Shown here: piece by piece, positions 9,102-64,000 of the stretch
Numbering within the stretch: position 1 is the stretch's first letter
Layout of the letters: the number at the start of each line of letters is the position of its first letter
Source of the DNA: a virus
Length of the DNA: 64,000 nucleotides
IMG/VR virus record: IMGVR_UViG_3300043419_000787
Location: 1-64,000 of that record
Reading direction: 5' to 3' (one strand)
Made by a program: the position numbers and the translations under genes
Notes under the pieces: generated by a model
The model's input: only the letters and a program-made list of their open reading frames with translations
Told to the model about the DNA's origin: nothing
Database searches by the model: none

Positions 9102-10583
9102 TTATTTTAATTTTGCGCGAATTGCAGTTAAAGTAGTTTGATTTCCAAAAGTACCATTTTCATAGATACATCTCATATCAGTTGCTTTCTCTCCAGACCA
9201 AGTTTGTTGATCGACTAATTTATAACCATCTTCTCCAGTTGTAATTCTTAGCAAACCTTTTGCAGATTTTTTAACACCGTCATCAGTGATTGGATCTTTA
9301 AAGATTTCACGACCTTCTCCATTAACTTCTACATAGGTTGCTTTCATTGCAAAACCAAATGTATCTCTAGTGTTATATTGGTAAGTGAAACTTCCAACTC
9401 CTAATACGATATTTGTACTTGCAAATCCTTTAGCTTCTAATCTTGTAAAGATTTGTTCAGCTCGGTCTAATGTAATTGAATCTCCATAGATTGCTCCAAT
9501 ATGTGGATCTAATACTTTGTAACCTTGTTCGTTGATTGTTCCACCGAATACATCCCAAAGTAATTCAATAACTCCTTTCCATTCGGGTTTATCCTCGGAA
9601 GGAAAATCGTTCCTGTTTAGTGATTCATTGATACCTTGTCTCGAATTGATACCACAAATAATATCCACCGGGTCACCAGAATCAGGACGAATAACTACTT
9701 TACCATCTCTTGCAAGAATCTCTTCTTTAAGAGTTACTAAGTGTTCAGTACAAACTTTCCATAAATCCCAAGTGTCTGACACGATAGAAAGAATTCCTGT
9801 TGGATATGTTTCCATTAAGTTTCGGAATGTTCCAATCTCATCTTCTTTAGATCCAGCACACATAACTGAATGTTCAGTTGCATTCACCGATCCAGCTACA
9901 AATTCAGTTTCATTGTAGAATTTACGGGCTCCAAAGATTGCTGGTAAACTATCAGAACCTGAGAAACTTGTTAAGTGACCAAGACCTGAAGAGATAGTTG
10001 CATCAATTGAATCTAGACCTCTCATTGAGAAATCATGTGCTTGCCAATCTACGAACCAGCTTTTTTCAGCATCAGTTTTCTCTTGCCATGTTGTAAATAA
10101 TTTACGGTAAGCATGTGCAATAGTTGCAGAAGTCATTGGTTTCCATAACAAGTTAGAAATAACTGTCTCTAGATAATTTGTTATCCAATAGAAATCAGGA
10201 TGTGTATTGTAAATTGTTAGGACTGGAACCTTCATTGGAACCAGAGCTCCTTCTTCAATTGCTTTAACATTAATAGGCAAGTAACCTAAATCATGAAGAG
10301 CTTCAAAATGACTAACATCATAATCAGTGTTTAAGTACATTGATAATTCTCGTTTCATTTCTCCACAAACTTCGTCTTTTGGACGGCTAAAGAAATCTTT
10401 TTGGAATGCCTCGTGGATTTGTTTAATTACCATTTGTTGTCCAAATGATACTAATTCGTCACAACCTTTCGGTGCGTACTTGTTACTTCTAGGAGTAAAG
10501 TTTGAATAAACCAACGTAGTTCCTTTTGGATATTGTTGGTGATGTCCTGTTTTGTAACCGTCTGTTAAAAATAATGGATTCAT
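9102..10583 (-). CDS. nadV: Nicotinamide phosphoribosyltransferase (NAMPT/NadV family; alternatively Namat-like)
   Basis: ~494 aa from MNPLFLTDGYKTGHHQQYP (NAMPT N-terminal signature). ORF-track N-extension MFIFTY... is translation of the repeated promoter element, so start trimmed to Met at 10583. Confidence 0.85.
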   Translation of the reverse strand: MNPLFLTDGYKTGHHQQYPKGTTLVYSNFTPRSNKYAPKGCDELVSFGQQMVIKQIHEAFQKDFFSRPKDEVCGEMKRELSMYLNTDYDVSHFEALHDLGYLPINVKAIEEGALVPMKVPVLTIYNTHPDFYWITNYLETVISNLLWKPMTSATIAHAYRKLFTTWQEKTDAEKSWFVDWQAHDFSMRGLDSIDATISSGLGHLTSFSGSDSLPAIFGARKFYNETEFVAGSVNATEHSVMCAGSKEDEIGTFRNLMETYPTGILSIVSDTWDLWKVCTEHLVTLKEEILARDGKVVIRPDSGDPVDIICGINSRQGINESLNRNDFPSEDKPEWKGVIELLWDVFGGTINEQGYKVLDPHIGAIYGDSITLDRAEQIFTRLEAKGFASTNIVLGVGSFTYQYNTRDTFGFAMKATYVEVNGEGREIFKDPITDDGVKKSAKGLLRITTGEDGYKLVDQQTWSGEKATDMRCIYENGTFGNQTTLTAIRAKLK

Positions 10584-10608
10584 ATATTGTATCTTTGTTA
10601 ATTTGTTA

Positions 10609-10684
10609 TATGTAAATATAAACAATGTTTTTCAATCGGGAAAACATTTAGTGAGTTATTTTCTAAAAAGTTATTAACATTTTT
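10609..10684 (-). promoter_or_regulatory. Tripartite repeated promoter-like element (type A), upstream of NAMPT gene
   Basis: ATATGTAAATATAAACA / TTTTCAATCGGGAAAACATTT / AGTGAGTTATTTTCTAAAAAGTTATTAACA. Confidence 0.55.
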
Positions 10685-13680: not shown

Positions 13681-13893
13681 TTATATTAGTTTTAAATATT
13701 TTAGTTCTTCGACTGCCGCATCAAATGCGTCTTGCCATGTTCGGTATAAAAACCACTCTTGTACATTAATTAATTCATAATTCCCAAAATGCTCATATTT
13801 GTATATGTCAAATGCATATTTAGGAGTACTCGTTCGGTCTAGAGATATTTCTACGACATATCCTAGAGTTGCTAATGAATCAATGGTGTACAT
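13681..13893 (-). CDS. Hypothetical small protein
   Basis: 70 aa ORF. Confidence 0.3.
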   Translation of the reverse strand: MYTIDSLATLGYVVEISLDRTSTPKYAFDIYKYEHFGNYELINVQEWFLYRTWQDAFDAAVEELKYLKLI

Positions 13894-14759
13894 TAATATA
13901 CGTTAAAAGTCTTGGTCTTAGTTTTTACTTCGTACTCGTCATCTGCAACTTCTCTAACACTGTTAGTACAGAAGATACCATTAAAATATTGAGTCAATGT
14001 TTCAAAACCAGCACTGAAAATACCGTGAGTTACAATCAAATAGATTTCGGCGTTTGGACGTTGTTCTTTAATAACTTTAGCCAATTCAACGAATGTTCTA
14101 CCACCATCACAAATATCGTCAACAATAACATATTTAAGGTCTTGATTTTCTGGTAAATTTGGAACTTCAGTTCTAAGAATGTTGCCAGATTTTAGGTCTC
14201 TGACCTTGTTTGCTGTAACAATATTTTCAATGTTGAATTCTTTAGCAACATCGAAGATTTTCTTGTAAGCTCCAGCATCTGGACTTACTAAGCAAATTCG
14301 GTCTTGTGCGTTGTCTTTATTATCAATTTCTTTCAATGCAAATTTAACTAGAGCAAAGTTTGGTGCTTTTTCATATCGATCAATACAAGCTTCTAGAACG
14401 TCGCTATGTGGATCTAATGTAATTACAACATCAAATTTCTGAGAATTGATAATTGGACAAATAACTTCTTTTAGATAATTGACACTACCAAATTCAAATC
14501 GACGATCTGAACGAGAACCTAAGAAGTAGGGTACATGTAAACCAATTGCTCCAGCTCCAACATTTCTTAATGCTTGATTTGCACAAATAATTAATTCAAG
14601 GTCTTTAAAAGAATTGAATCGAGAATCAATAAGAACCTGTTGTAAGTCTTCAGGAGATGAAGGTGGTAAGATTGAAATTGATTGTTGTCCATCAGGAAAT
14701 CTGTGGATTTGATATTTAATATCAGATTTTTCTAGGTCTACTAAATTTAAATGCTTCAT
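13893..14759 (-). CDS. prs: Ribose-phosphate pyrophosphokinase family (Prs; alternatively ADPR-PP synthetase Adps-like)
   Basis: PRPP-synthetase signatures DPHSDVLEACIDRY and the PRPP-binding loop VIVDDICDGGRTF. Confidence 0.85.
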   Translation of the reverse strand: MKHLNLVDLEKSDIKYQIHRFPDGQQSISILPPSSPEDLQQVLIDSRFNSFKDLELIICANQALRNVGAGAIGLHVPYFLGSRSDRRFEFGSVNYLKEVICPIINSQKFDVVITLDPHSDVLEACIDRYEKAPNFALVKFALKEIDNKDNAQDRICLVSPDAGAYKKIFDVAKEFNIENIVTANKVRDLKSGNILRTEVPNLPENQDLKYVIVDDICDGGRTFVELAKVIKEQRPNAEIYLIVTHGIFSAGFETLTQYFNGIFCTNSVREVADDEYEVKTKTKTFNVY

Positions 14760-17742: not shown

Positions 17743-18660
17743 TTAATTCATTCCTTTGTACAATTGAGGTGCAGTTCCATAAACAGGTAACTTACCATCC
17801 CATTTGTTAATCCATTCTAATTGTAACAACATTGGAGTAATAGTTTTCTGCTTCAAACTATTTGCTTCGGCTTCAGCTTTTGCAGCAGTTAACATTGCTT
17901 GAGCATTACCATTTGCAGTTGCAATTTTAATTTTGGCTTGTGCTTCGGCTGTTTTAACTTCATTCTCTGCTCTCAAAGCTGATTGGACTGCGTTATTCTT
18001 AGCTTCAATAGATTTCTTAAATGTTTCAGGATAGATTAGATTCGATGTGAATTGATTAATAATAAATCCTTCTTTAAGTAATTGACTTTCCAATAATCTT
18101 CGTACTTCTACTTCAAATACTGCTCTATTAGAAATTAACTCGTCTGCTGTATATTTATTAGTTGCTAAACGGAACGCATCATAAACTGCAGTCTTTAAGA
18201 AACCTTCTTCAATTTCTGGAAGAGATCTACGATATTTAGCAAAGATTGCAGGTACCTTTTCACGTTGAACCGAATAGTTCATAATTGGTGAAACTTGGAA
18301 TTCACTACCATCTTTAGAGTTTACAACAAATGAGTTGTCAACATCTTCAGTTTTCTTGTATTCTTTATGTTGAATAAAGGTTGGAAACTCATAAATTTTT
18401 GTAGAGATTGGATTGTAAAATACCATTCCTGTACATTCTGTTACATCGTCAACTCCCTTTCCACTTCCATACAAATTAACTTTTACACCGACATGACCTG
18501 CGTCGATTCTTTCGCATGATTGAAACATCACGATTAGCGCAATAAATGCTGCAATTCCAATTAGGATTCTTTTTACCATTTTTTTAATTTTTAATTGTTG
18601 ATTTTGTTTTTCTTGTTCACGTTCTTCTTGCTGGATTTCCCAGTAGCTTTTTTCTGACAT
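17743..18660 (-). CDS. SPFH/band-7 (prohibitin/flotillin-like) membrane protein
   Basis: N-terminal TM helix then SPFH-like core and long A/E/K-rich coiled coil. Alternative start MVKRIL at 18579 removes the overlap with the upstream ORF. Confidence 0.7.
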   Translation of the reverse strand: MSEKSYWEIQQEEREQEKQNQQLKIKKMVKRILIGIAAFIALIVMFQSCERIDAGHVGVKVNLYGSGKGVDDVTECTGMVFYNPISTKIYEFPTFIQHKEYKKTEDVDNSFVVNSKDGSEFQVSPIMNYSVQREKVPAIFAKYRRSLPEIEEGFLKTAVYDAFRLATNKYTADELISNRAVFEVEVRRLLESQLLKEGFIINQFTSNLIYPETFKKSIEAKNNAVQSALRAENEVKTAEAQAKIKIATANGNAQAMLTAAKAEAEANSLKQKTITPMLLQLEWINKWDGKLPVYGTAPQLYKGMN

Positions 18661-54737: not shown

Positions 54738-55830
54738 TGTCGAATCCTAAGTCTTCGCCTGCTGTGTTATAATTAAATAATGGTTGTATATGTTTCTCGA
54801 TTTTTTGAAGAACTTCAGTGTTAAAGACTTTATCAGTAAAGAAATCTTTGTTTGGTACTACTTCATCTAAATGCTGACATATCCAAGTTTTAGCAGTATC
54901 TTTTTTGATTTTCTCTTTTGTCTTAGGATCGATAATTCCTCTAGTTACTCCACAAATATCCCAAGTTGCATATTGCTCTAATCCAACATAACGATTCATT
55001 CCCTTAGTAAAATCTAAATGAAATTTAATTGCAGTTGGTTTGGCAAAACGATTCTTAGCAGGTTTTGCAGTTACAATAATACCAACTTTTTCTGCTCCAT
55101 CTTTTAATTGTGCTTTGTTTAACATCAACACAATAGATGCTGCATATTCAGGTCCAGTTCCACCACCTGCAATTTGTTGAGGTATGAATGACTGAGACTG
55201 GTAAGTGTGGTTTGTAAATAGGAAAGGAATCTTTAAATCAGCCATTGGAGTCATGATAATTCTAAAGATTGATTTTAGTACTTTAGAACGAGTCATATCT
55301 GCTTTATCAGATCCTGATGCTGCATCTTCGATTTCTTTTTGAGTTGCTAAGTTACCAGCAGAATCTAATACCATCATTATTTTTGGAATAGATGCTCCGC
55401 CTCTTTTAGCTTCTTGCATTTTCTTAGTGATTGATGTTACTGAAGTTCTAAACTCCTGTACAGTATTCACTGGTTGGTAACTGACTTTAGTTGTATCAAT
55501 ACCAAATTTTTTCATTAGGTCTTTATCAACTGCTGCTTCAGAGTCATAATAGATGACGCTGTAACCCATGTTGATTGCTTCTCGAACAGTATTTAACATT
55601 AGGAATGTTTTACCAGTTCCTGAAGGTCCTGCTACTGAACAAGATCGGTTGTTCGGCCATCCACCAAAAAGACTACCAGAAACACATGCATTTAAATGGT
55701 AGTTTCCTGTATCTAACCATTCAGTTACTTCAGAGAAATCTGAAGTTTCCATAATGGATCCTAGTGGGTTTAATTCTGCTAATTCAGCGTTGATGTCATC
55801 GAACGTGAATGATGTTACTTTTTTAGCCAT
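54706..55830 (-). CDS. uvsX: UvsX/RecA-family recombinase
   Basis: Walker A SVAGPSGTGKTF; RecA-fold core; 374 aa. Confidence 0.85.
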   Translation of the reverse strand: MAKKVTSFTFDDINAELAELNPLGSIMETSDFSEVTEWLDTGNYHLNACVSGSLFGGWPNNRSCSVAGPSGTGKTFLMLNTVREAINMGYSVIYYDSEAAVDKDLMKKFGIDTTKVSYQPVNTVQEFRTSVTSITKKMQEAKRGGASIPKIMMVLDSAGNLATQKEIEDAASGSDKADMTRSKVLKSIFRIIMTPMADLKIPFLFTNHTYQSQSFIPQQIAGGGTGPEYAASIVLMLNKAQLKDGAEKVGIIVTAKPAKNRFAKPTAIKFHLDFTKGMNRYVGLEQYATWDICGVTRGIIDPKTKEKIKKDTAKTWICQHLDEVVPNKDFFTDKVFNTEVLQKIEKHIQPLFNYNTAGEDLGFDIDDVIDSDED

Positions 55831-56017
55831 TGTTTTCTATATTTTTAAAAAGGTCTGCTTCTTTTACTCGAAGTTCGTTAATTTGATTAATTGAATCAGT
55901 AAGTTCTTGTTTCAACATTTCGATTCTTATTTTTAAAGAACCAACTTTACCGTAAATTTCACGGTATTTTTCAATAACTTCTAGTTGTTCCGGGGTTAGT
56001 TGTGATGTATCAATCAT
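55823..56017 (-). CDS. Hypothetical small coiled-coil protein
   Basis: 64 aa ORF. Confidence 0.3.
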   Translation of the reverse strand: MIDTSQLTPEQLEVIEKYREIYGKVGSLKIRIEMLKQELTDSINQINELRVKEADLFKNIENNG

Positions 56018-56018
56018 A

Positions 56019-57215
56019 TTAAAATAATGAAGTTGAGTAAATTAAGTTTCTGTTTAGAGTTTGTAATCCGATCGATTCTAATAAACGATTCAATGGATCA
56101 ATCATACTCTTTTCAAATTGTACTTCATAATCAATTGGTGGTGCTATTTCGTATGGATGGTCTCCAGGAAAATATGCGAACATTTCGCAAGTTTTGTGGT
56201 TACAATGATACAATCTTAGCTTTTCACCATTACCGATTAATTTGTACTTGTTCTTGTACTTTGGATTGTTGTTTAATAGATAATTGTAGAATCCTGCTGC
56301 TTTCACGTTAGGTGGACATTTAGAACCATATTGGAATTCGATATGGTCATCAACAATATATTTTTCAATATTATTTGTTCTCTTATTGAATGTAATATCA
56401 TCAATATTTGCCATCTTAAATTCTTTCTTAGTTTTCTTAAGAAATGTGACCATCTTACCAAGAGTTTCGGCATTTGGTTTTTCAGTAAACAAGATTTGAA
56501 TTGCTTCAGTTAATTTCTTACGAACAAAAGTAGGAGTTGAAGATTGAATTGAATCAAATCCAATAACTTTTACTTTCTTAAGTGAAGGGTATCTTTCATG
56601 TTCTTTTAACTTGTCTTCCCATGCAATATCTTGAATGTACTTCTTTTTAGCCATCCAAATTCCAGCATATGCAATCGATTCTAGTTCAAATTGTAAGAAG
56701 CTTTCTGTATTTCTATTTTCAGCATACTTATCTAATGACTTTGAAATATATTCTTTAATTCTAAGATTGTATATTGCTAAAATAAAAGTTGCAATATCCA
56801 TCTTTTCGCCAAGCCATTCAATAGAATCATACATCTCTTCAAACTGAACATAGTTCGAATCTGTATCAATGTAAATTACTGCTTCTTTGTAAATGTTGTT
56901 CTTGACTCTAATATTTAGTTTCTGATGAACATCTTTATCTTTAATAAAGAATTCTTGGAAATACTTATTTAGAATTTTTGCAGAATAAAGGATTGCATTT
57001 TGTCCTTGTAGTGTAATGGATTCAGCAATATCGATATTGAAAAAATGGAACCACTGGTTCCCAAAGGCTCCATAAATAGAGTTTAATGTTACTTTAACGG
57101 CTTGTTCATAAGCTGTAAACTTGGCAGACTCATTCTTAAAATGAGTCGCCAAGATTTCAAGCTCGTTTCTGGTAAGTTGCTCTTCAGGTTTATTTAGTAG
57201 TTCTTCGATTGTCAT
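56019..57215 (-). CDS. DNA polymerase (family B) C-terminal cistron (palm motifs B and C + thumb)
   Basis: Motif B KVTLNSIYGAFG and motif C YIDTDS. No exonuclease motifs or motif A (those are in 61107..62516). Confidence 0.85.
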   Translation of the reverse strand: MTIEELLNKPEEQLTRNELEILATHFKNESAKFTAYEQAVKVTLNSIYGAFGNQWFHFFNIDIAESITLQGQNAILYSAKILNKYFQEFFIKDKDVHQKLNIRVKNNIYKEAVIYIDTDSNYVQFEEMYDSIEWLGEKMDIATFILAIYNLRIKEYISKSLDKYAENRNTESFLQFELESIAYAGIWMAKKKYIQDIAWEDKLKEHERYPSLKKVKVIGFDSIQSSTPTFVRKKLTEAIQILFTEKPNAETLGKMVTFLKKTKKEFKMANIDDITFNKRTNNIEKYIVDDHIEFQYGSKCPPNVKAAGFYNYLLNNNPKYKNKYKLIGNGEKLRLYHCNHKTCEMFAYFPGDHPYEIAPPIDYEVQFEKSMIDPLNRLLESIGLQTLNRNLIYSTSLF

Positions 57216-57961
57216 TAATCAGCGGATTGGCAAGTTGCAATAGTTAATAAAGTAGCAGATTCAGTAGAACGTAATACTACGCGGTTACCGAATACGTAAG
57301 CTTTGTAGTCTTCTTTGTCAAGTAAACTCAAATACTTTTTATAAACTGTTACATTTGCTTTATCACCTTCAAATTCAGTACTTACTAATTTGCTGTATGA
57401 TTTACCACTAATTTTAACACCATCATCAGATGATGAGATACTAAATGTTTCATCTTTATCTAAGTTGAATAAAGATTTGATTTTTCCAGTTTCAACATTA
57501 CTTAATTCGAATACGAAATCAGATCCTTCAGTATTGAAGATTCCTTGTAATTGAGATTCTGTTAAATCTTTGTAACCTAAAGAAGGTTCTGAACAAGATA
57601 ATGTGATTTCCAAATCATCATTAAAGATTTTGAAACTTGTTGCTACACAATCTTCATCATTTTCAATGAATTCAATTTCGCCATGGATACCTTGGTAATC
57701 GAATTGTTTGAATGCTTCGATTAATTTAGCTGCATCAAAGAATGCAACTTTTAATTCTTTTTCAGGTGTTTCGCCTGATGTTACGAAAATCTCTCCTAGT
57801 GGAAGAGCGTTGTGCTTCACAGCATCTCGCTGTGGCAAGTAAGCTGAAGAAACTACTTGATCGCCTTTAATCTTAAAATAGATAAAAGAGTCAATAAGTT
57901 TCAATCGGTTTACGAAACCAATAAAATTGTTTTGGTCTACTTTGTCAATGTGTAATTTCAT
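57215..57961 (-). CDS. Hypothetical protein, possibly sliding clamp (gp45-like)
   Basis: 248 aa (gp45 is 228 aa), acidic, between the polymerase cistrons. Only weak N-terminal resemblance (MKL...). Confidence 0.3.
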   Translation of the reverse strand: MKLHIDKVDQNNFIGFVNRLKLIDSFIYFKIKGDQVVSSAYLPQRDAVKHNALPLGEIFVTSGETPEKELKVAFFDAAKLIEAFKQFDYQGIHGEIEFIENDEDCVATSFKIFNDDLEITLSCSEPSLGYKDLTESQLQGIFNTEGSDFVFELSNVETGKIKSLFNLDKDETFSISSSDDGVKISGKSYSKLVSTEFEGDKANVTVYKKYLSLLDKEDYKAYVFGNRVVLRSTESATLLTIATCQSAD

Positions 57962-58025
57962 GAATAAACTTTTTTTAGAAACGTTTGATATGATACTTAT
58001 ATGGAGTAATCAGTATTTGTTTCAT

Positions 58026-58063
58026 AAAAAAGGGCAGAGATAGTAGCGAACGTTTCTCTGCCC
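58026..58063 (-). terminator. Intrinsic terminator downstream of nrdA
   Basis: GGGCAGAGA-13 nt loop-TCTCTGCCC followed on the minus strand by TTTTTTATG. Confidence 0.55.
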
Positions 58064-58120
58064 AACCCGTTAACTATAACGGTCCTAAAATGTGTCTATA
58101 TAAATATAGACACCGGAATT

Positions 58121-59938
58121 TTATCCATCGCAACTCAAGCAATCAGGATCCATTGCTCTTTGTGCTATATCTCCTCTAAGTACTGATTCAGTTCTCATAT
58201 AATAAAGTGTTTTGATTCCTTGATTATAAGCTTCTAAATGCACTTGATTGATAAATTTAGGTTCGGCCTCATTTGGAAATGCTAAGTTTAATGAAACTGC
58301 TTGGTCAACATATTGTTGACGAAGTCCTGCTTGTTTAACTAATTCCATTTGATTAATTTCTTTAAATGTTCTATAAGCATCTTTCATTGGAATAAATTCT
58401 GATTTTTCCATATCAGTCATTTCGGCCAATTTGTCGATATGAACAGGTCGTCCTGCTTTCTCTTCTAATTTCTCTCCAATTTTTACAAAGTATTCATCCA
58501 TCCAATCTAAACCTTGGACTGAACCACCATCGGCTAGAATCTGATCCCATGTATCTTTGTTATTTTTCTTAACAAATGATAGAGCTTTTTCCAATGTTGG
58601 ATTCTTTCTAATAAAAGTACCTTTTGCTGTTTGTTCAGTAAATACGTTTGCTGCCCAAGGTTCAATACCTGCAGAAACATTGCCAGACAATTTAGAGTTA
58701 GAAACTGTAGGGGCAATTGCACGTAAATGTGAATTTCTCATTCCAGTTCCAACACACCAAAGTGGTTCTCCATATTCTGTCGCCATATCTCTACTTGCTC
58801 TTTCAGATTCAATTTTGATTTGACTAAAAATCTTTCTAGTTTCAAATTGAGCCATTAGAGAATCAAATGGAATATTACGATCTTGTAAATATGTGTGCCA
58901 TCCTAAAACTCCAAGTCCTAATGCTCTACCTTTTTCGGCAGAACGAACTGAGTTTTCAAATCCTCTCATGTATTTTGCACGACTAATAAATTCAGAAAGA
59001 ACTCCATCTAAAAATTGAGTTGATGTATATACTAAATCTGTATTTTTCCACTCGTCATATTTAGCCAAGTTCAATGAACTTAAACAACAAACAAATGAGT
59101 GATTCTCATCAGTGTGTAAAGTAATCTCTGAACAAATATTGGTCATATAAACTTTTAAACCATTTTGTTTGTATGCTTCAGGATTTGCTCGGTTAACATT
59201 TCCCTTGTACATTATATAAGGCTCTCCAGTTGATTTTCTTTTTCTAAGAACTGCAGCCCATCTTTTTCTTGCTTCTTTATCTCCAGCTTCTAATTTAGAC
59301 ATGAAACTATCTGAAACAACAACACACATGTGCATATTTAAAGATTGACGATTAACATCTCCTTTAGGTTCTCTAATTTCTAACCATTCCCAAAAATCAC
59401 CATGTTCAATATCAATATTTACTGATGCTGCTCCTCTTCTAACGGACCCTTGATTGGTTGCCAAAACTGAACTGTCGTAAATTTTAATGAAAGGAACTAC
59501 ACCATCTGATGTACCATTTTGAGAAATATTTGTACCTGCTGGACGAATTTGATTTACACCAATTCCAACTCCACCGCCGTGTTTTGCAAGTAACATCATT
59601 TCTAAATTTTTACCACCAATATCAGCAATAGAATCTGCAACGTCAATACCAAAACAAGAAATTGGTAATCCTCTTTCAGTACCTGTATTTGATAAAACTG
59701 GCGTAGCCAAGTTTAACCAACCTTTCCAAATATAATCGAAGAATTTGCTTGCCAATTCAGGCTTTCCTAATCTTTTTGCAATGCTTGTTGAAACTCTCCA
59801 ATAAGCATCTTTAGGTGTTTCACCTTTTAACAAATATCCTTTTGATATTGTTTTAACATAAATTTCTGTATTACCCCAAACTGGGAAATCTACTCCTAGT
59901 TCCCAGCCTTGTTGTTCTCCGTAATTAATTTGATCCAT
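58121..59938 (-). CDS. nrdA: Ribonucleotide reductase class I alpha subunit (NrdA), no ATP-cone
   Basis: Active-site NICSEITL (C-x-E) and C-terminal redox pair CLSCDG. 605 aa; N-terminus lacks the VxKRDG ATP-cone. Confidence 0.8.
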   Translation of the reverse strand: MDQINYGEQQGWELGVDFPVWGNTEIYVKTISKGYLLKGETPKDAYWRVSTSIAKRLGKPELASKFFDYIWKGWLNLATPVLSNTGTERGLPISCFGIDVADSIADIGGKNLEMMLLAKHGGGVGIGVNQIRPAGTNISQNGTSDGVVPFIKIYDSSVLATNQGSVRRGAASVNIDIEHGDFWEWLEIREPKGDVNRQSLNMHMCVVVSDSFMSKLEAGDKEARKRWAAVLRKRKSTGEPYIMYKGNVNRANPEAYKQNGLKVYMTNICSEITLHTDENHSFVCCLSSLNLAKYDEWKNTDLVYTSTQFLDGVLSEFISRAKYMRGFENSVRSAEKGRALGLGVLGWHTYLQDRNIPFDSLMAQFETRKIFSQIKIESERASRDMATEYGEPLWCVGTGMRNSHLRAIAPTVSNSKLSGNVSAGIEPWAANVFTEQTAKGTFIRKNPTLEKALSFVKKNNKDTWDQILADGGSVQGLDWMDEYFVKIGEKLEEKAGRPVHIDKLAEMTDMEKSEFIPMKDAYRTFKEINQMELVKQAGLRQQYVDQAVSLNLAFPNEAEPKFINQVHLEAYNQGIKTLYYMRTESVLRGDIAQRAMDPDCLSCDG

Positions 59939-59971
59939 CTAAAAATTTTAATTTGTATTGTTTATTTATTC

Positions 59972-60988
59972 TTATGAAAACATGTCGTCCTCGTCCCAAT
60001 TCTCATCTTCTCCTGCTTTTGAGTAGTCAGTTGGTCGAATTGCAAAGAAATCAGTGTGTGTATGTCCACCAGTTAAATGATAGAACCAGTCTAATTGACT
60101 AGCCATCGCTTCGCTATAATGGAAAATGCTTTCATATCCTAATTCGTTTAATTTCTCATTTGCTCTTTTCTTAATAAATTCTTTAAGGTCATTTGCTTGC
60201 ATGTTTTCAAGGTCTCCCATTTCAAACATTTTATCAATGAATTGGAATTCCATTTCAACCATAAGTTTTGCAGCTTCTTCAACTTGAGATTGAACTGCTT
60301 CTTTTAATTCAGGATATTCTTCACACATGTGACGGAAAAGTTGACAACCCATTTTAGAGTGTAAAGATTCATCTCTAACAGACCATTTCATTTGCTGACC
60401 AATACCTTTAAGTAGGTTACGCATCTGGAATGAATATAAAACAGCAAATGATGAATATAGTGAAACTCCTTCAGCAAACGCAGAGAAGATCGCAAGTGAT
60501 CGGGCAACGTCCTTTCTAGCATCTGAATTATGTTGCAAATCTAAATGAGTGTAATCATTATTAGTTTCAACTAGGAATTCAAATTTCTGAGAAGTTGCAG
60601 GTTCTTTAAGAAATGCTGCAAAATCTTCTAGACCTAATGTCTCATTTAAATACGAATATGCAACAGCATGTACTGTTTCGTTTGCACCAAAAGCCATCGC
60701 CATTTGTCTAATTTCGTGCTTTGGGAACCATTTAGTTACCATATTAGTCCAGTAATCTGAAACTGCACATTCGGTTTGAGCAAATCCTAATAATATATTT
60801 CCAACAAGATTCTTTTCAGAAGGAGTTAAATGCTCATTCCAATCTTTAAGATCGCCTTGCATTGAAATTTCAGTATGTAGCCAATGCGCTTGCATAACTG
60901 GAAGCCATCCTTCAGTATAGTACATTGGATATTCAAAGGGTTTGTACTCTACGCGTTCAACAAATAATGATGATTTTGAATTTTCCAT
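59972..60988 (-). CDS. nrdB: Ribonucleotide reductase class I beta subunit (NrdB)
   Basis: Di-iron ligand motifs (ANETVHAVAYSY = ExxH; FAEGVSLYSSF) and 338 aa length. Confidence 0.8.
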   Translation of the reverse strand: MENSKSSLFVERVEYKPFEYPMYYTEGWLPVMQAHWLHTEISMQGDLKDWNEHLTPSEKNLVGNILLGFAQTECAVSDYWTNMVTKWFPKHEIRQMAMAFGANETVHAVAYSYLNETLGLEDFAAFLKEPATSQKFEFLVETNNDYTHLDLQHNSDARKDVARSLAIFSAFAEGVSLYSSFAVLYSFQMRNLLKGIGQQMKWSVRDESLHSKMGCQLFRHMCEEYPELKEAVQSQVEEAAKLMVEMEFQFIDKMFEMGDLENMQANDLKEFIKKRANEKLNELGYESIFHYSEAMASQLDWFYHLTGGHTHTDFFAIRPTDYSKAGEDENWDEDDMFS

Positions 60989-61106
60989 TTTTTTAATTTT
61001 TTTTACTTTTTGTATAGACTAGAATGGCCTAGAGTTTTAAGTTCCAGGCCAATGTATTGGGATTTCTTTATATATTAAAGACAACCCAGCAGACATAGTC
61101 CGGAAG

Positions 61107-62516
61107 TTAATCTTTTTTCTTTTCTAATAACTTTTTGTAGTGTTCCGCTTTTGTATATAGATCGTAAGATGTAGACTTATATTGCTTTCTTTTTGAATAC
61201 AAATCTGTAAGAATCATTTTTAACATTGAATCTTCATTACGATAAACAACTCCATTTTCGCAAACAATAACATTTTTATCTGCTCTACGTTCTTCAATTT
61301 TTGAAAGTGGAACCTTTTCAACAAATGCATCTGGAGAGATATTGAATTGACGCATGATAGATGGATATAGAGATGCAAAGTCAAATGCACTTACACCGTG
61401 ATAGAAACCAACTTTAGGTTCTTTTACAAATGCACCAGCATATTGTGTATCTTTTTTACCATCAGATCTTTGTTCAGTTCCAATTCTAAAACCAGATTCT
61501 GCCATTTTACGGGCAATTAATGCTTCAGTTACGGCAACAGGGGATGCTGCTTTATAAAGAGGCATTTGTGTAATATTTGCAAGTGTTAGAAGTACATCCA
61601 TTGATTTTAGTTTCTGATCAATATAATATACTAACACACTATCGACTACGTTATAATAAACATATTTTTTAAAATCATCGCGATAAAGGTCTTGTAAACC
61701 TCCATTGTATTTGATTTTACCGAAACCTAGAACTTGACCTGCAACATATTCAAGAGCATTTGATTCTTTAACTTTTACAGATTTATCATATTTGTCATAT
61801 AATTGCATGTAATCAAGAATACCCATGTGAAGAGGTCTTGAATCTGTAGAATCTACTGCTTTTGTTAGTGCTGAATCTGCAATATCAATTTGTAATCTTT
61901 TACAACGATTAACAATATATTGCCAGTCATAGTTGATAAAGTTCCAACCTGACATCATTGGGAATTTAGGCATGAATTTATACAAGAACGTATAAACCAT
62001 ATCATACTCAGATTTAAACTTAATGTATTGAAAAGTCCAATCAGAATCTAATTGTTTGAAATACTCATTAGTATCTTTTTCAATTTGACTAATTTGTTCT
62101 GGTGAAAGGTCTTCTAATCCAAGAACAATTGTCTTTTTATTTGGAGTAATAATTGAGAACGTTAAGATTCTAGATTTAGCTTCTTCAGCTTTAGGGAATC
62201 CATCTACTATTTCAGTTTCAATATCGACAAAATAAGTCTTTGGCATATTGTATGCATAAATCTCTTCTTTGTCCTTTGCAGGAAGATTATCCATAAAATA
62301 TACCAAAGAAAACTTATTAAATTGTCTAGAAGCTCCTAATTTAACAGGACGATTATCCCAATTTTTAAATTGAGTACTTGCTTCACGATCTTTAGCATCA
62401 CAAACAAACCAGTTTTGGTATTGGTTGATTGGGTATCTTTTAAAAGCTACTTCTCCTTCTTTATTATAAAAGGAAACCATAACCTCTTTGTCTCTTTGTT
62501 CGATGTCTAATAACAT
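61107..62516 (-). CDS. DNA polymerase (family B) N-terminal cistron (3'-5' exonuclease + motif A)
   Basis: Exo I FVDIETE, Exo II SGWNFINYDWQY, Exo III YYNVVDSVLV, Pol motif A DFASLYPSI. ORF ends ~70 aa after motif A with a stop. No intein-like sequence. Confidence 0.9.
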   Translation of the reverse strand: MLLDIEQRDKEVMVSFYNKEGEVAFKRYPINQYQNWFVCDAKDREASTQFKNWDNRPVKLGASRQFNKFSLVYFMDNLPAKDKEEIYAYNMPKTYFVDIETEIVDGFPKAEEAKSRILTFSIITPNKKTIVLGLEDLSPEQISQIEKDTNEYFKQLDSDWTFQYIKFKSEYDMVYTFLYKFMPKFPMMSGWNFINYDWQYIVNRCKRLQIDIADSALTKAVDSTDSRPLHMGILDYMQLYDKYDKSVKVKESNALEYVAGQVLGFGKIKYNGGLQDLYRDDFKKYVYYNVVDSVLVYYIDQKLKSMDVLLTLANITQMPLYKAASPVAVTEALIARKMAESGFRIGTEQRSDGKKDTQYAGAFVKEPKVGFYHGVSAFDFASLYPSIMRQFNISPDAFVEKVPLSKIEERRADKNVIVCENGVVYRNEDSMLKMILTDLYSKRKQYKSTSYDLYTKAEHYKKLLEKKKD

Positions 62517-62983
62517 TAATATCCTCGTTTTTGGCGTTGCTTATTCTCTTCTGCTTTTGCAAAGTAGTAATTGTATGCTGTTTTGGCGTCTAGTCCAATT
62601 GAAGCAGCATAATTTATAAAGAAGTGTAGAATATCTACCCATTCCATATAAAGTTCTTTGCGATCATTTTCTGAAAGATCGGAAATTTTCAAGTTCTCAT
62701 ATTTAGTATGAGCTGTTTTCCAATATTTCCAAACTGCATTACCATCTCCATCTTTAATACCACCTAATGCATCAGTCATTTCATGAATCTCATCAACTAC
62801 TGCGTGAGTATTAACATGCCAGAAATTCATAATGTCTCTGATTGACATATTGTCAAAATCAAATCCATAAGTTTTTTCTTGCATTTCTTTTTGGTGATTC
62901 ATTATATCTGCCAAATGTGTGGTAGATTTATCATAGAAGTCATTTACTTCTAAATCTTTACATTCATTATCAATATTTGCCAT
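62516..62983 (-). CDS. All-alpha NTP pyrophosphohydrolase (MazG/dimeric dUTPase-like); candidate dCTPase (T4 gp56-like)
   Basis: 155 aa. Acidic helix motifs VVDEIHEMTDAL and ELYMEWVDILHFF. C-terminal AVWKYWK...ILHFFINY...RQKRGY resembles gp56 as I recall it; needs verification. Confidence 0.5.
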   Translation of the reverse strand: MANIDNECKDLEVNDFYDKSTTHLADIMNHQKEMQEKTYGFDFDNMSIRDIMNFWHVNTHAVVDEIHEMTDALGGIKDGDGNAVWKYWKTAHTKYENLKISDLSENDRKELYMEWVDILHFFINYAASIGLDAKTAYNYYFAKAEENKQRQKRGY

Positions 62984-63006
62984 ATACTATTTTATAGTTT
63001 TATTTG

Positions 63007-63420
63007 TTATTGTTTACTAAATTTGATGTAATCCTGAATATAATTTCTAATTCTGTCAGATCCAACAGGATTCATTGAATGTACTTCAAAACATGGAAAG
63101 TCTAATTTATTGTCGATACAATAATCAACTAACCATTTAGCACAGTCTAAACCTGTTTTTTCTTCAAATTCAGTTGGATAGTCAGCAACATCTCCACACA
63201 TTGCTGGACTATAATGCTCATCTGCTAAATCATGATCGAATGATACCATTTCAGGAAGACCATTTAAAGTAATCCATTTTGTAAATTCATCGTAATTTTT
63301 AACAATTGACCATTCTTGTTGAGTATACATTGCAGCATGCGTACCTATTCGGTATGGCATGTAACTCATACAGTCATGAGGATTCCTGAAGTCGTCTAAA
63401 AATAAATGAGTTGCTTTCAT
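63007..63420 (-). CDS. Hypothetical protein
   Basis: Start set at MKATHLFLDDFRNP to avoid overlap with upstream ORF; no motif recognised. Confidence 0.35.
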   Translation of the reverse strand: MKATHLFLDDFRNPHDCMSYMPYRIGTHAAMYTQQEWSIVKNYDEFTKWITLNGLPEMVSFDHDLADEHYSPAMCGDVADYPTEFEEKTGLDCAKWLVDYCIDNKLDFPCFEVHSMNPVGSDRIRNYIQDYIKFSKQ

Positions 63421-63430
63421 AATAGTTATA

Positions 63431-63922
63431 TTAGAAAAGCGAGTTTTGTTCAAAATTATTATTAAAAAAGTATTCCATAACCGAATCATCAGTTCTTGCT
63501 ACTTTTCGACGACTAATTAAATGCGGGTTATTTCTTAAGCGGTAATAAACTCCATACTGGCAAAGACCAACTTCGCAACCATAAGTTTTAAGGTCATCTT
63601 GTTCATGTTGGAAAACCTTCTTACCGTCAACATAAACATTATGTGTTGATTCATGTAATGGTATATCTCCAATAAGGTCTTTATAATTCTCACGGAACCA
63701 AATAACTCTATCTCCATAAGGAATTGTACAACCTTCGCCAAACATTAAGTCTAATGTATATCTAGCACCAGGTCCAGGTACGCAAAATCTTTCATCATGA
63801 TCTATATTAAGTCTTGGATTTACAGAGTTTGACGTTGAACAGTGATAACCGTAATAAGAACCAACACCTTCAATTTCTGTTAATATATTAAACATCTCAG
63901 ATAAAGAGTTAACCTGGGCCAT
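63431..63922 (-). CDS. Hypothetical Cys-rich protein
   Basis: 163 aa ORF. Confidence 0.4.
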   Translation of the reverse strand: MAQVNSLSEMFNILTEIEGVGSYYGYHCSTSNSVNPRLNIDHDERFCVPGPGARYTLDLMFGEGCTIPYGDRVIWFRENYKDLIGDIPLHESTHNVYVDGKKVFQHEQDDLKTYGCEVGLCQYGVYYRLRNNPHLISRRKVARTDDSVMEYFFNNNFEQNSLF

Positions 63923-64000
63923 TCTTGCTGTGATTCCTCGAGGTATAAAAGAAGCTACCCATAGAAGAATATTAACTTTATGAGCATCTCTTGGTTGATT

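Follow-up and report, generated by a model that had tools for sequence, protein, structure and literature searches.

The locus considered here raises the question of whether two separate genes, each encoding part of a family-B DNA polymerase, together specify one replicative enzyme. The genes lie in a stretch of viral DNA of 64,000 nt (IMG/VR record IMGVR_UViG_3300043419_000787, positions 1 to 64,000), which we call the window and which represents 64 kb out of a genome of ~215-250 kb. All coordinates are positions in this window, and the whole polymerase region is on the minus strand. The first cistron, PolB-N, and the second, PolB-C, are separated by 3,891 bp that contain nrdB and nrdA, which encode a class I ribonucleotide reductase (RNR), and an open reading frame (ORF) of 248 amino acids (aa) that has the size of a sliding clamp (Table 1). 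We consider it very likely that the two polypeptides assemble non-covalently into a single replicative polymerase of the T4/RB69 type. An earlier note on this DNA had held that the halves must work as a two-subunit polymerase. This is indeed the best reading, but “must” is too strong, because the physical assembly of the halves and their polymerase activity are what we infer from conservation, complementarity and precedent.

The profile matches of the two products complement each other. PolB-N matches the Pfam family DNA_pol_B_exo1 (PF03104, 1.8e-9) and positions 21-137 of the DNA_pol_B profile (1.6e-17), and PolB-C matches positions 153-453 of the latter (8.6e-18); judged by these alignments, the halves jointly cover the Pfam polymerase profile without overlap or loss. 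Each half is also matched by a PHROGs family from end to end, namely phrog_2062 (502 positions) by PolB-N (2e-81) and phrog_1918 (382 positions) by PolB-C (2e-70). Along the full-length family phrog_262, positions 94-500 are covered by PolB-N and positions 494-843 by PolB-C, and in an alignment to the solved structure of RB69 gp43 the halves correspond to approximately residues 71-490 and 539-819, respectively.

The expected motifs are likewise divided between the two products. PolB-N contains the exonuclease motifs Exo I (D98/E100), Exo II (N192/D197) and Exo III (Y288/D292), whose residues are invariant or nearly so in homologue alignments, as well as motif A (D379), and its first finger helix carries the R/K residues equivalent to RB69 R482/K486. 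In PolB-C we find motif B (KVTLNSIYG), motif C (YIDTDS), KKKY and a C-terminal tail (...NLIYSTSLF) that is conserved among relatives. Of the features that mark membership in family B of the T4/RB69 gp43 type, the exonuclease motifs, motifs A, B and C with KKxY, and the fold are all present, and the single polypeptide is the one that is absent. The earlier note had reported two cistrons at these positions, the first with Exo I-III and motif A, the second with its own start codon and motifs B and C, and our Pfam, PHROGs and motif analyses agree. Its estimate that PolB-N stops ~70 residues past motif A was too low, since the actual distance from the motif A Asp is about 90-91 residues.

We then modelled the PolB-N and PolB-C of the window with AlphaFold2 (AF2) as an artificial single chain in which the two sequences were concatenated, using an alignment of database homologues. 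The model has a mean pLDDT (predicted local distance difference test score) of 91.9 and a pTM (predicted template modelling score) of 0.85. It adopts the five-domain fold (N-terminal, exonuclease, palm, fingers and thumb) and resembles full-length RB69 gp43 with a TM (template modelling) score of 0.78-0.83. In this model, PolB-N and PolB-C appear as complementary halves of a complete enzyme. PolB-N would supply the N-terminal and proofreading exonuclease domains together with motif A of the palm and the first of the finger helices, and PolB-C would supply the other finger helix, on which motif B lies, together with motif C of the palm, the thumb and the C-terminal tail.

The model also predicts where the protein is broken. 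Its only segment with pLDDT below 50 is 467-475, and PolB-N ends at residue 469. A long helix (431-464) is the last element of PolB-N, and a further helix (485-520) begins PolB-C. Because the sole low-pLDDT segment is the junction itself and is flanked by finger helices, we place the cut at the fingertip, i.e., in the variable loop that caps the hairpin formed by the two antiparallel finger helices. The breakpoint had previously been assigned to the palm, an assignment that the model contradicts. A cut at the fingertip implies that the active site would be shared, in that the dNTP-binding site and the catalytic Asp pair (one from motif A, one from motif C) would each be built from both chains.

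This position is not new among family-B polymerases. According to Petrov (2006, 2010), as cited in PMC3061061 and PMC2988022, gp43 is naturally split at the fingertip in Aeromonas phages 25, 31, 44RR and 65 and in Acinetobacter phage 133, with cistrons 2 bp to 3 kb apart, and gp43A and gp43B of phage 25 purify together and show activity (Petrov 2010, as cited in PMC2988022). An engineered Pfu polymerase that is divided close to the fingertip retains full activity (PMC3061061). Because these split enzymes are active, the break in the window lies at a site known to tolerate splitting. The agreement in position is close: PolB-N ends 26 residues past the finger Arg (30 residues in gp43A of Aeromonas phage 25), and PolB-C starts 40 residues ahead of the motif-B Lys (46 residues in gp43B), so that the breaks lie within about 4-6 residues of each other.

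Before such comparisons are given weight, it is important to consider that a frameshift or a chimeric join might falsely separate one gene, a possibility that the earlier note had named as fatal to its claim. What can be said for such an artefact is the general possibility only, together with the fact that an otherwise identical contig (L006, 12579..14395) has its nrdA as two ORFs (476 and 126 aa), probably reflecting a frameshift error or a recent pseudogene; this interruption sits in nrdA. However, the exact PolB-N protein occurs in at least 23 contigs from ENA, JGI and Logan assemblies of different samples (the contig index lists 35 blocks, of which 23 contigs were read), and the gene order is the same in all six contigs shown. 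The order PolB-N, nrdB, nrdA, clamp, PolB-C, UvsX, whose comparison with other genomes had been proposed earlier, is kept in 30 diverged IMG/VR relatives (PolB-C 62-99% identical), in which the stop position of PolB-N is conserved as well. Moreover, the 3.9 kb between the halves consist of conserved genes under selection. The same structure thus recurs across unrelated samples, independent assemblers and relatives, and we reject an assembly artefact, to which we assign practically no probability. The split is real, and neither chance nor an artefact.

A different concern is that the halves do not form one enzyme: one of them might be a relic or have a separate role, e.g., PolB-N as a stand-alone exonuclease, with another polymerase replicating the genome. 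We calculated the ratio of nonsynonymous to synonymous substitution rates (dN/dS) from unsaturated comparisons, namely the window versus L011 and the window versus L013. The respective values are 0.034 and 0.068 for PolB-N, 0.038 and 0.039 for PolB-C, and 0.035 and 0.11 for the clamp gene. Strong purifying selection therefore acts on both polymerase halves (dN/dS 0.03-0.07). The catalytic residues, among them the motif A Asp of PolB-N and motifs B and C of PolB-C, are without exception invariant in homologue alignments, which would not be expected of a pure exonuclease or a relic. No second PolB, and no other polymerase, was found in the 64-kb window, and complete genomes of relatives have a single PolB-N match and a single PolB-C locus, the latter in some cases itself in two pieces. 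In view of the low dN/dS and the invariant catalytic residues in both halves we reject a pseudogene, and thus the decayed half beside a second intact polymerase that the earlier note had named as its other possible refutation. The broader proposal of separate roles we regard as quite improbable.

Some observations nevertheless weigh against a two-chain polymerase, and the first three of them are also what favours separate roles. With 64 kb of the genome in view, a polymerase of a different family may lie elsewhere. Some jumbo phages of group 2.2 are reported to encode an additional, split PolIII-alpha-like protein (PMC7824862). The halves appear to belong to separate transcription units (see below), and their balanced expression is not guaranteed. 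In addition, the proposed assembly of these particular halves is drawn from their genes and a single-chain model, and the alignment given to AF2 included 21 full-length homologues; the model thus speaks for complementary halves and not for their association. Finally, the clamp-binding role discussed below for the ...SLF tail of PolB-C is drawn wholly from analogy with RB69.

To see how the split is distributed, we compared the locus with those of deposited phages. The nearest relatives are huge uncultured phages, first LR756500 (45% identity), then LR756502, LR756504 and LR756501. They are followed by Lak megaphages, Sphingomonas phage PAU, Chryseobacterium phages MA9V-1 and MA9V-2, and Tenacibaculum phages PTm1 and PTm5. 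In PAU (gp105/gp110), MA9V-1 (ORF135/ORF138), PTm1 (gp236/gp239+gp241) and LR756500, the polymerase is likewise split at the fingertip, and the few genes that separate the halves include a clamp gene. A distance of 130-280 kb separates the halves in LR756504, LR756502 and Lak-A2, and in LR756504 and LR756502 they are on opposite strands; any joining in cis is therefore excluded there.

This last arrangement bears on the idea that joining takes place at the RNA level, whether through the splicing of an intron, trans-splicing or translational bypass. Group I introns do occur in T4-type phages, including one in gene 43B of Aeromonas phage 25. In the window, however, three independent genes, all conserved, and a terminator occupy the interval, both halves begin with a start codon of their own that overlaps the stop codon of the preceding gene, and an Rfam E-value scan of 55500..63600 found no intron family, returning just a chance microRNA match. 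Given these results and the opposite-strand halves of the megaphages, we reject RNA-level joining, whose likelihood we put close to nil.

Alternatively, the halves could be joined after translation by a split intein, i.e., by protein trans-splicing, as in Nanoarchaeum PolB or in “fractured genes”. Split inteins do interrupt the same gene in relatives of the window: one is found at motif C in LR756500, and PTm1 gp239 is annotated as an “intein-containing split DNA polymerase precursor”. However, the inteins of these relatives are at motif C, not at the fingertip, and are additional to the fingertip split. In the window, PolB-N and PolB-C have no intein or Hint match in Pfam. The spare sequence outside the finger helices amounts to about 5 residues at the C-terminus of PolB-N and about 15 at the N-terminus of PolB-C, and the ends of the halves show neither a Cys/Ser-initiated N-intein fragment nor a C-fragment ending in ...HN|C/S/T. 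The C-half of LR756500 served as a positive control, and its intein at motif C is clear. Intein trans-splicing is thus effectively refuted by the sequence, as the earlier note had anticipated in seeing no intein, and we reject it as extremely unlikely.

In LR756500 and PTm1, the additional split intein at motif C (YIDTD|S ... VHN|S) breaks the C-half again (LR756500.1 244000-268000, i.e., L009, 4784..8184; PTm1, i.e., L040, 12522..15328), and PolB is therefore encoded by three genes in these phages. Between the intein halves there is a free-standing endonuclease-like ORF, of 567 aa in LR756500 and annotated as “VSR endonuclease” in PTm1. A polymerase in three genes with a split intein and an endonuclease-like ORF corresponds to the “fractured gene” arrangement (PMC2677866).

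We next searched PolB-N against 1.84 billion cluster representatives and counted the best 150 clusters. Among these, 115 are of the size of an N-half (400-560 aa), none of which contains motif B or C, and 24 are full length. The N-half clusters with a recognisable motif A end at a median of 93 residues past the motif A Asp, compared to 91 by the same count for PolB-N of the window. Unsplit forms, of which the 994-aa polymerase gene of Flavobacterium phage MaF61 is an example, are scattered among split forms. A rough neighbour-joining tree requires at least 17 changes of state, a number that is indicative only, as the tree is crude and the gene calls may contain errors. One split protein, P0224 (489 aa), aligns along its entire length with residues 1-488 of the unsplit P0259 (906 aa) at 61% identity and stops at the fingertip of P0259; from their sequences, the two appear to be a closely related pair that differ only in being split or unsplit. 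The split is thus the majority state in this phage group, and it is evolutionarily labile. The earlier view that such polymerases are known in a few T4-related phages was too narrow: PAU, MA9V-1 and PTm1 carry the split in GenBank, each half has its own PHROGs family, and 115 of the 150 best clusters are N-halves only. The enzyme of the window would accordingly be a functional two-subunit polymerase of the gp43A/gp43B type, with a kind of split that is already known and is common in this phage group.

The 248-aa ORF is predicted to encode the sliding clamp. It is acidic, as noted earlier along with its clamp-like size, and has a two-domain clamp fold (gp45/PCNA). Only a fold search, with the protein modelled as a monomer, identified it; searches of Pfam, PHROGs, NCBIfam and PDB sequences gave no match. 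It has weak but colinear BLASTP similarity to PAU gp109 and MA9V1_137, both of which are directly upstream of PolB-C, and a profile that includes these PAU and MA9V-1 homologues matches PTm1 gp237 (7.9e-22), which is sited between the polymerase halves of PTm1. A cognate clamp loader, a gp44-type AAA+ protein with Gp44_lid, is encoded in the window and is the expected partner of the clamp. By analogy with RB69, the ...SLF tail of PolB-C may bind the clamp. When the surroundings of PolB-C in LR756504, LR756502 and Lak-A2 were searched with a clamp profile, no clamp appeared within 6 kb, and clamp adjacency is therefore not universal.

Expression signals suggest how the two polypeptides would be produced. 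The stop codon of the NTP-pyrophosphatase gene overlaps the ATG of PolB-N in the sequence TAATG, and the stop codon of the clamp gene overlaps the ATG of PolB-C in the same way. PolB-N would thus be translationally coupled to the NTP-pyrophosphatase gene upstream, with nrdB, nrdA and a terminator following, and PolB-C to the clamp gene directly upstream. The spacing from clamp to PolB-C is about -1 to +4 nt in all relatives examined. The terminator, which had been noticed earlier between nrdA and the clamp ORF, consists of the hairpin GGGCAGAGA...UCUCUGCCC with a G+C-rich stem of 9 bp, followed by U6, and folding of 57985..58120 gives -37.5 kcal/mol (z-score -4.5). A consensus terminator scan gave no match to the nrdA terminator, whose loop exceeds 8 nt. 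Because of this terminator, the PolB-N/RNR unit is probably separate from the clamp/PolB-C unit, and the halves are probably on different transcripts. The regions that flank the RNR pair (60989..61106 and 58064..58120) contain additional very stable hairpins, e.g., GUGUCUAUAUUUAUAUAGACAC (z-scores -4.0 and -4.5).

The genes between the halves differ among relatives. In the window, the class I RNR pair recognised earlier is well supported, with scores above the curated NCBIfam cut-offs for both nrdA (NF006577, 635 bits, cut-off 620) and nrdB (NF007186, 261 bits, cut-off 237), in addition to Pfam matches; nrdA is a short form with no match to the ATP-cone. In five relatives (L015, L018, L022, L023 and L032; e.g., L015 5876..8493), the nrdB and nrdA in this slot are only ~29% and 37% identical to those of the window, and the flanking PolB-N and PolB-C are 72-79% identical. 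The presence of diverged RNR genes beside similar polymerase halves points to an RNR cassette of a different type in the same slot, and the cassette has apparently been replaced at this position. We therefore picture the 3.9-kb interval as a possible cargo slot that would have accumulated genes for nucleotide supply. It contains no endonuclease ORF in the window and has no room for one.

Extra ORFs are present in the interval of some relatives (L023 8114..9206, L037 8310..9203, L033 6248..6679 and L039 8054..9138). Judged by eye, some of these resemble 2-oxoglutarate-dependent oxygenases or 2-hydroxyacid dehydrogenases, and none is a homing endonuclease. Small ORFs beginning with MKHIKLFEQF also occur in the interval of relatives.

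We also considered whether the fingertip split might be a selected, clade-wide design of the holoenzyme and not a neutral scar. This could be so in either of two ways: PolB-C, co-translated with the clamp, might form a clamp-thumb-palm module that recruits PolB-N, or the open fingertip might relax nucleotide selection in favour of the hypermodified dNTPs or DNA that seem to be used by these phages. For the latter, it can be cited that a 5-hydroxymethyldeoxyuridine (5-hmdU)-kinase-like gene and further modification-type genes adjoin PolB-N. The heavily modified DNA of PAU can be cited as well. The engineered fingertip split of Pfu polymerase broadened its substrate use. We consider a selected design speculative and rather unlikely.

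It is useful to compare the two-chain polymerase of the window with split polymerases that have been described, among them gp43A/gp43B of T4-related phages, which belongs to the same enzyme family. The two have the same break between the finger helices, the N-to-C order on one strand and a T4-type replication core (gp41, gp44, gp45, gp46/47 and UvsX). They differ in that the T4-related cistrons, 2 bp to 3 kb apart, have a homing-endonuclease gene or an untranslated spacer between them, whereas the window has 3.9 kb of clamp and RNR genes. In Aeromonas phage 25, gene 45 is upstream of 43A, whereas the clamp gene of the window is inside the split and coupled to the C-half. Moreover, T4-type gp43 is very distant from the lineage of the window (~28% identity), and the split is confined to a small subgroup of T4-related phages but widespread in the window's group. 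The split polymerases of PAU, MA9V-1 and PTm1 are more similar: their halves are homologous to those of the window (28-34% identity), the fingertip break is the same, and a clamp homologue lies between the halves (PMC4889955). The cargo of the interval is different, namely dUTPase and small ORFs in PAU and hypothetical ORFs in MA9V-1 and PTm1 versus RNR in the window, and PTm1, like the uncultured LR756500, has the additional split intein at motif C that the window lacks.

More distant cases show other ways of dividing the enzyme. Like the window, the chimallivirus PhiKZ has a B-family polymerase made from two genes, DNAP-N and DNAP-C, that works with a clamp-fold protein, and its subunits form a stable 1:1 complex resembling RB69 gp43 (PMC13648687). 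However, the PhiKZ split lies in a large palm insertion before the fingers, and PhiKZ has no clamp loader, its Rhc being a monomeric RNase H-clamp fusion (PMC13648687); the window has a fingertip split, a gp45-sized two-domain clamp and a gp44-type loader. PolB of Methanothermobacter thermautotrophicus (Mth) and the engineered split Pfu polymerase are, like the enzyme proposed here, active two-piece family-B polymerases that do without protein splicing. Both are cellular enzymes, unlike that of the phage. The Pfu split is near the fingertip as in the window, but that of Mth falls in the palm, ~83 residues further towards the C-terminus than that of Pfu, with the genes 85 kb apart (Kelman et al. 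1999, as cited in PMC3061061).

In the searchable literature, we found the fingertip split of this clade annotated, and found no analysis or discussion of it. A review of jumbo phages in which Lak and PTm1 belong to “group 2.2” calls their PolB classic and does not mention the split, and the MA9V-1 paper lists both polymerase ORFs without comment. A 2026 paper on gut Jug phages states that polymerase genes are often split by endonucleases.

If the two-chain reading is true, this locus provides another natural and strongly conserved family-B replicative polymerase that works without a covalent fingertip, from a very distant and abundant group of environmental and gut jumbo phages related to phages of Bacteroidota. 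Beyond what has been described, the split would be a majority yet labile state, the clamp gene would be inside the split and tightly coupled to the C-half in several lineages, and the interval would be a slot for cargo where RNR genes of two types, as well as other metabolic genes, are exchanged. For these phages, annotation pipelines and phylogenies built on the polymerase should count on two PolB genes in each genome, and sometimes on three, and the naturally split enzymes could serve polymerase engineering.

Table 1. Features of the polymerase region and the clamp-loader gene, with positions in the window.
Feature	Position	Strand	Basis
NTP pyrophosphohydrolase/dUTPase-like gene, 155 aa	62516..62983	-	PHROGs phrog_173 9.5e-13; phrog_18650 “dUTPase” 3.3e-9
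PolB-N, 469 aa: N-terminal domain, 3'-5' exonuclease (Exo I-III), palm with motif A, first finger helix	61107..62516	-	
Intergenic region PolB-N/nrdB, 118 nt, stable hairpins	60989..61106	-	RNA fold -28.3 kcal/mol, z-score -4.0
nrdB, class I RNR small subunit, 338 aa	59972..60988	-	Pfam PF00268 4.8e-59
nrdA, class I RNR large subunit, 605 aa	58121..59938	-	Pfam PF02867 + PF00317, 5.2e-88
Intergenic region nrdA/clamp, 159 nt, contains terminator	57962..58120	-	
Intrinsic terminator 3' of nrdA	58026..58063	-	Sequence reading and folding
Predicted sliding clamp (gp45/PCNA fold), 248 aa, acidic, isoelectric point 4.72	57215..57961	-	Fold search
PolB-C, 398 aa: second finger helix with motif B, palm with motif C and KKKY, thumb, C-terminal tail	56019..57215	-	
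Small ORF, 64 aa	55823..56017	-	
UvsX, RecA-type, 374 aa	54706..55830	-	
gp44-type clamp-loader large subunit, 316 aa	37880..38830	-	Pfam AAA 5.9e-21, Gp44_lid 5.5e-12

Beyond UvsX, the region continues with a gp41-type helicase and then gp47/gp46. Elsewhere in the window there are further T4-type core genes, encoding portal gp20, prohead protease gp21, capsid gp23, gp15, tail sheath, large terminase and RNase H, and because of these core genes we assign the window to a T4-like myovirus. The G+C content of the window is ~33%. Contigs that encode the same proteins reach 215-256 kb, among them IMGVR_UViG_3300012346_000380 (256 kb) and the contig that carries P0001 (215 kb), and these lengths suggest a jumbo phage; taken together, the data point to a T4-like jumbo phage, and its source is fresh water. 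A megablast search of 55000..63500 against deposited phages gave no match, and the lineage is therefore without a close cultured relative.

On the other side of the polymerase module, the dUTPase-like gene is homologous to the PAU dUTPase gp106, which in PAU is located just after PolB-N. Just upstream of the module (63007..64000), there is an ORF with a cREC_REC domain and another, cut by the end of the window, that matches the helical domain of 5-hmdU DNA kinase (PF18723). Further upstream, in the relative contig L003 (3332..9510), we observed matches to Methyltransf_21, a weak match resembling T4 glucosyltransferase, and matches resembling inositol-1-phosphate synthase. The genes upstream of the polymerase module in the window and in L003 suggest a DNA hypermodification cluster. 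The window also contains auxiliary metabolic genes at 9102..10625, 13893..14759 and 17743..18660, which encode nicotinamide phosphoribosyltransferase (NAMPT), a phosphoribosyl-transferase or phosphoribosyl-pyrophosphate (PRPP)-synthetase-like ORF, and an SPFH/Band-7 protein.

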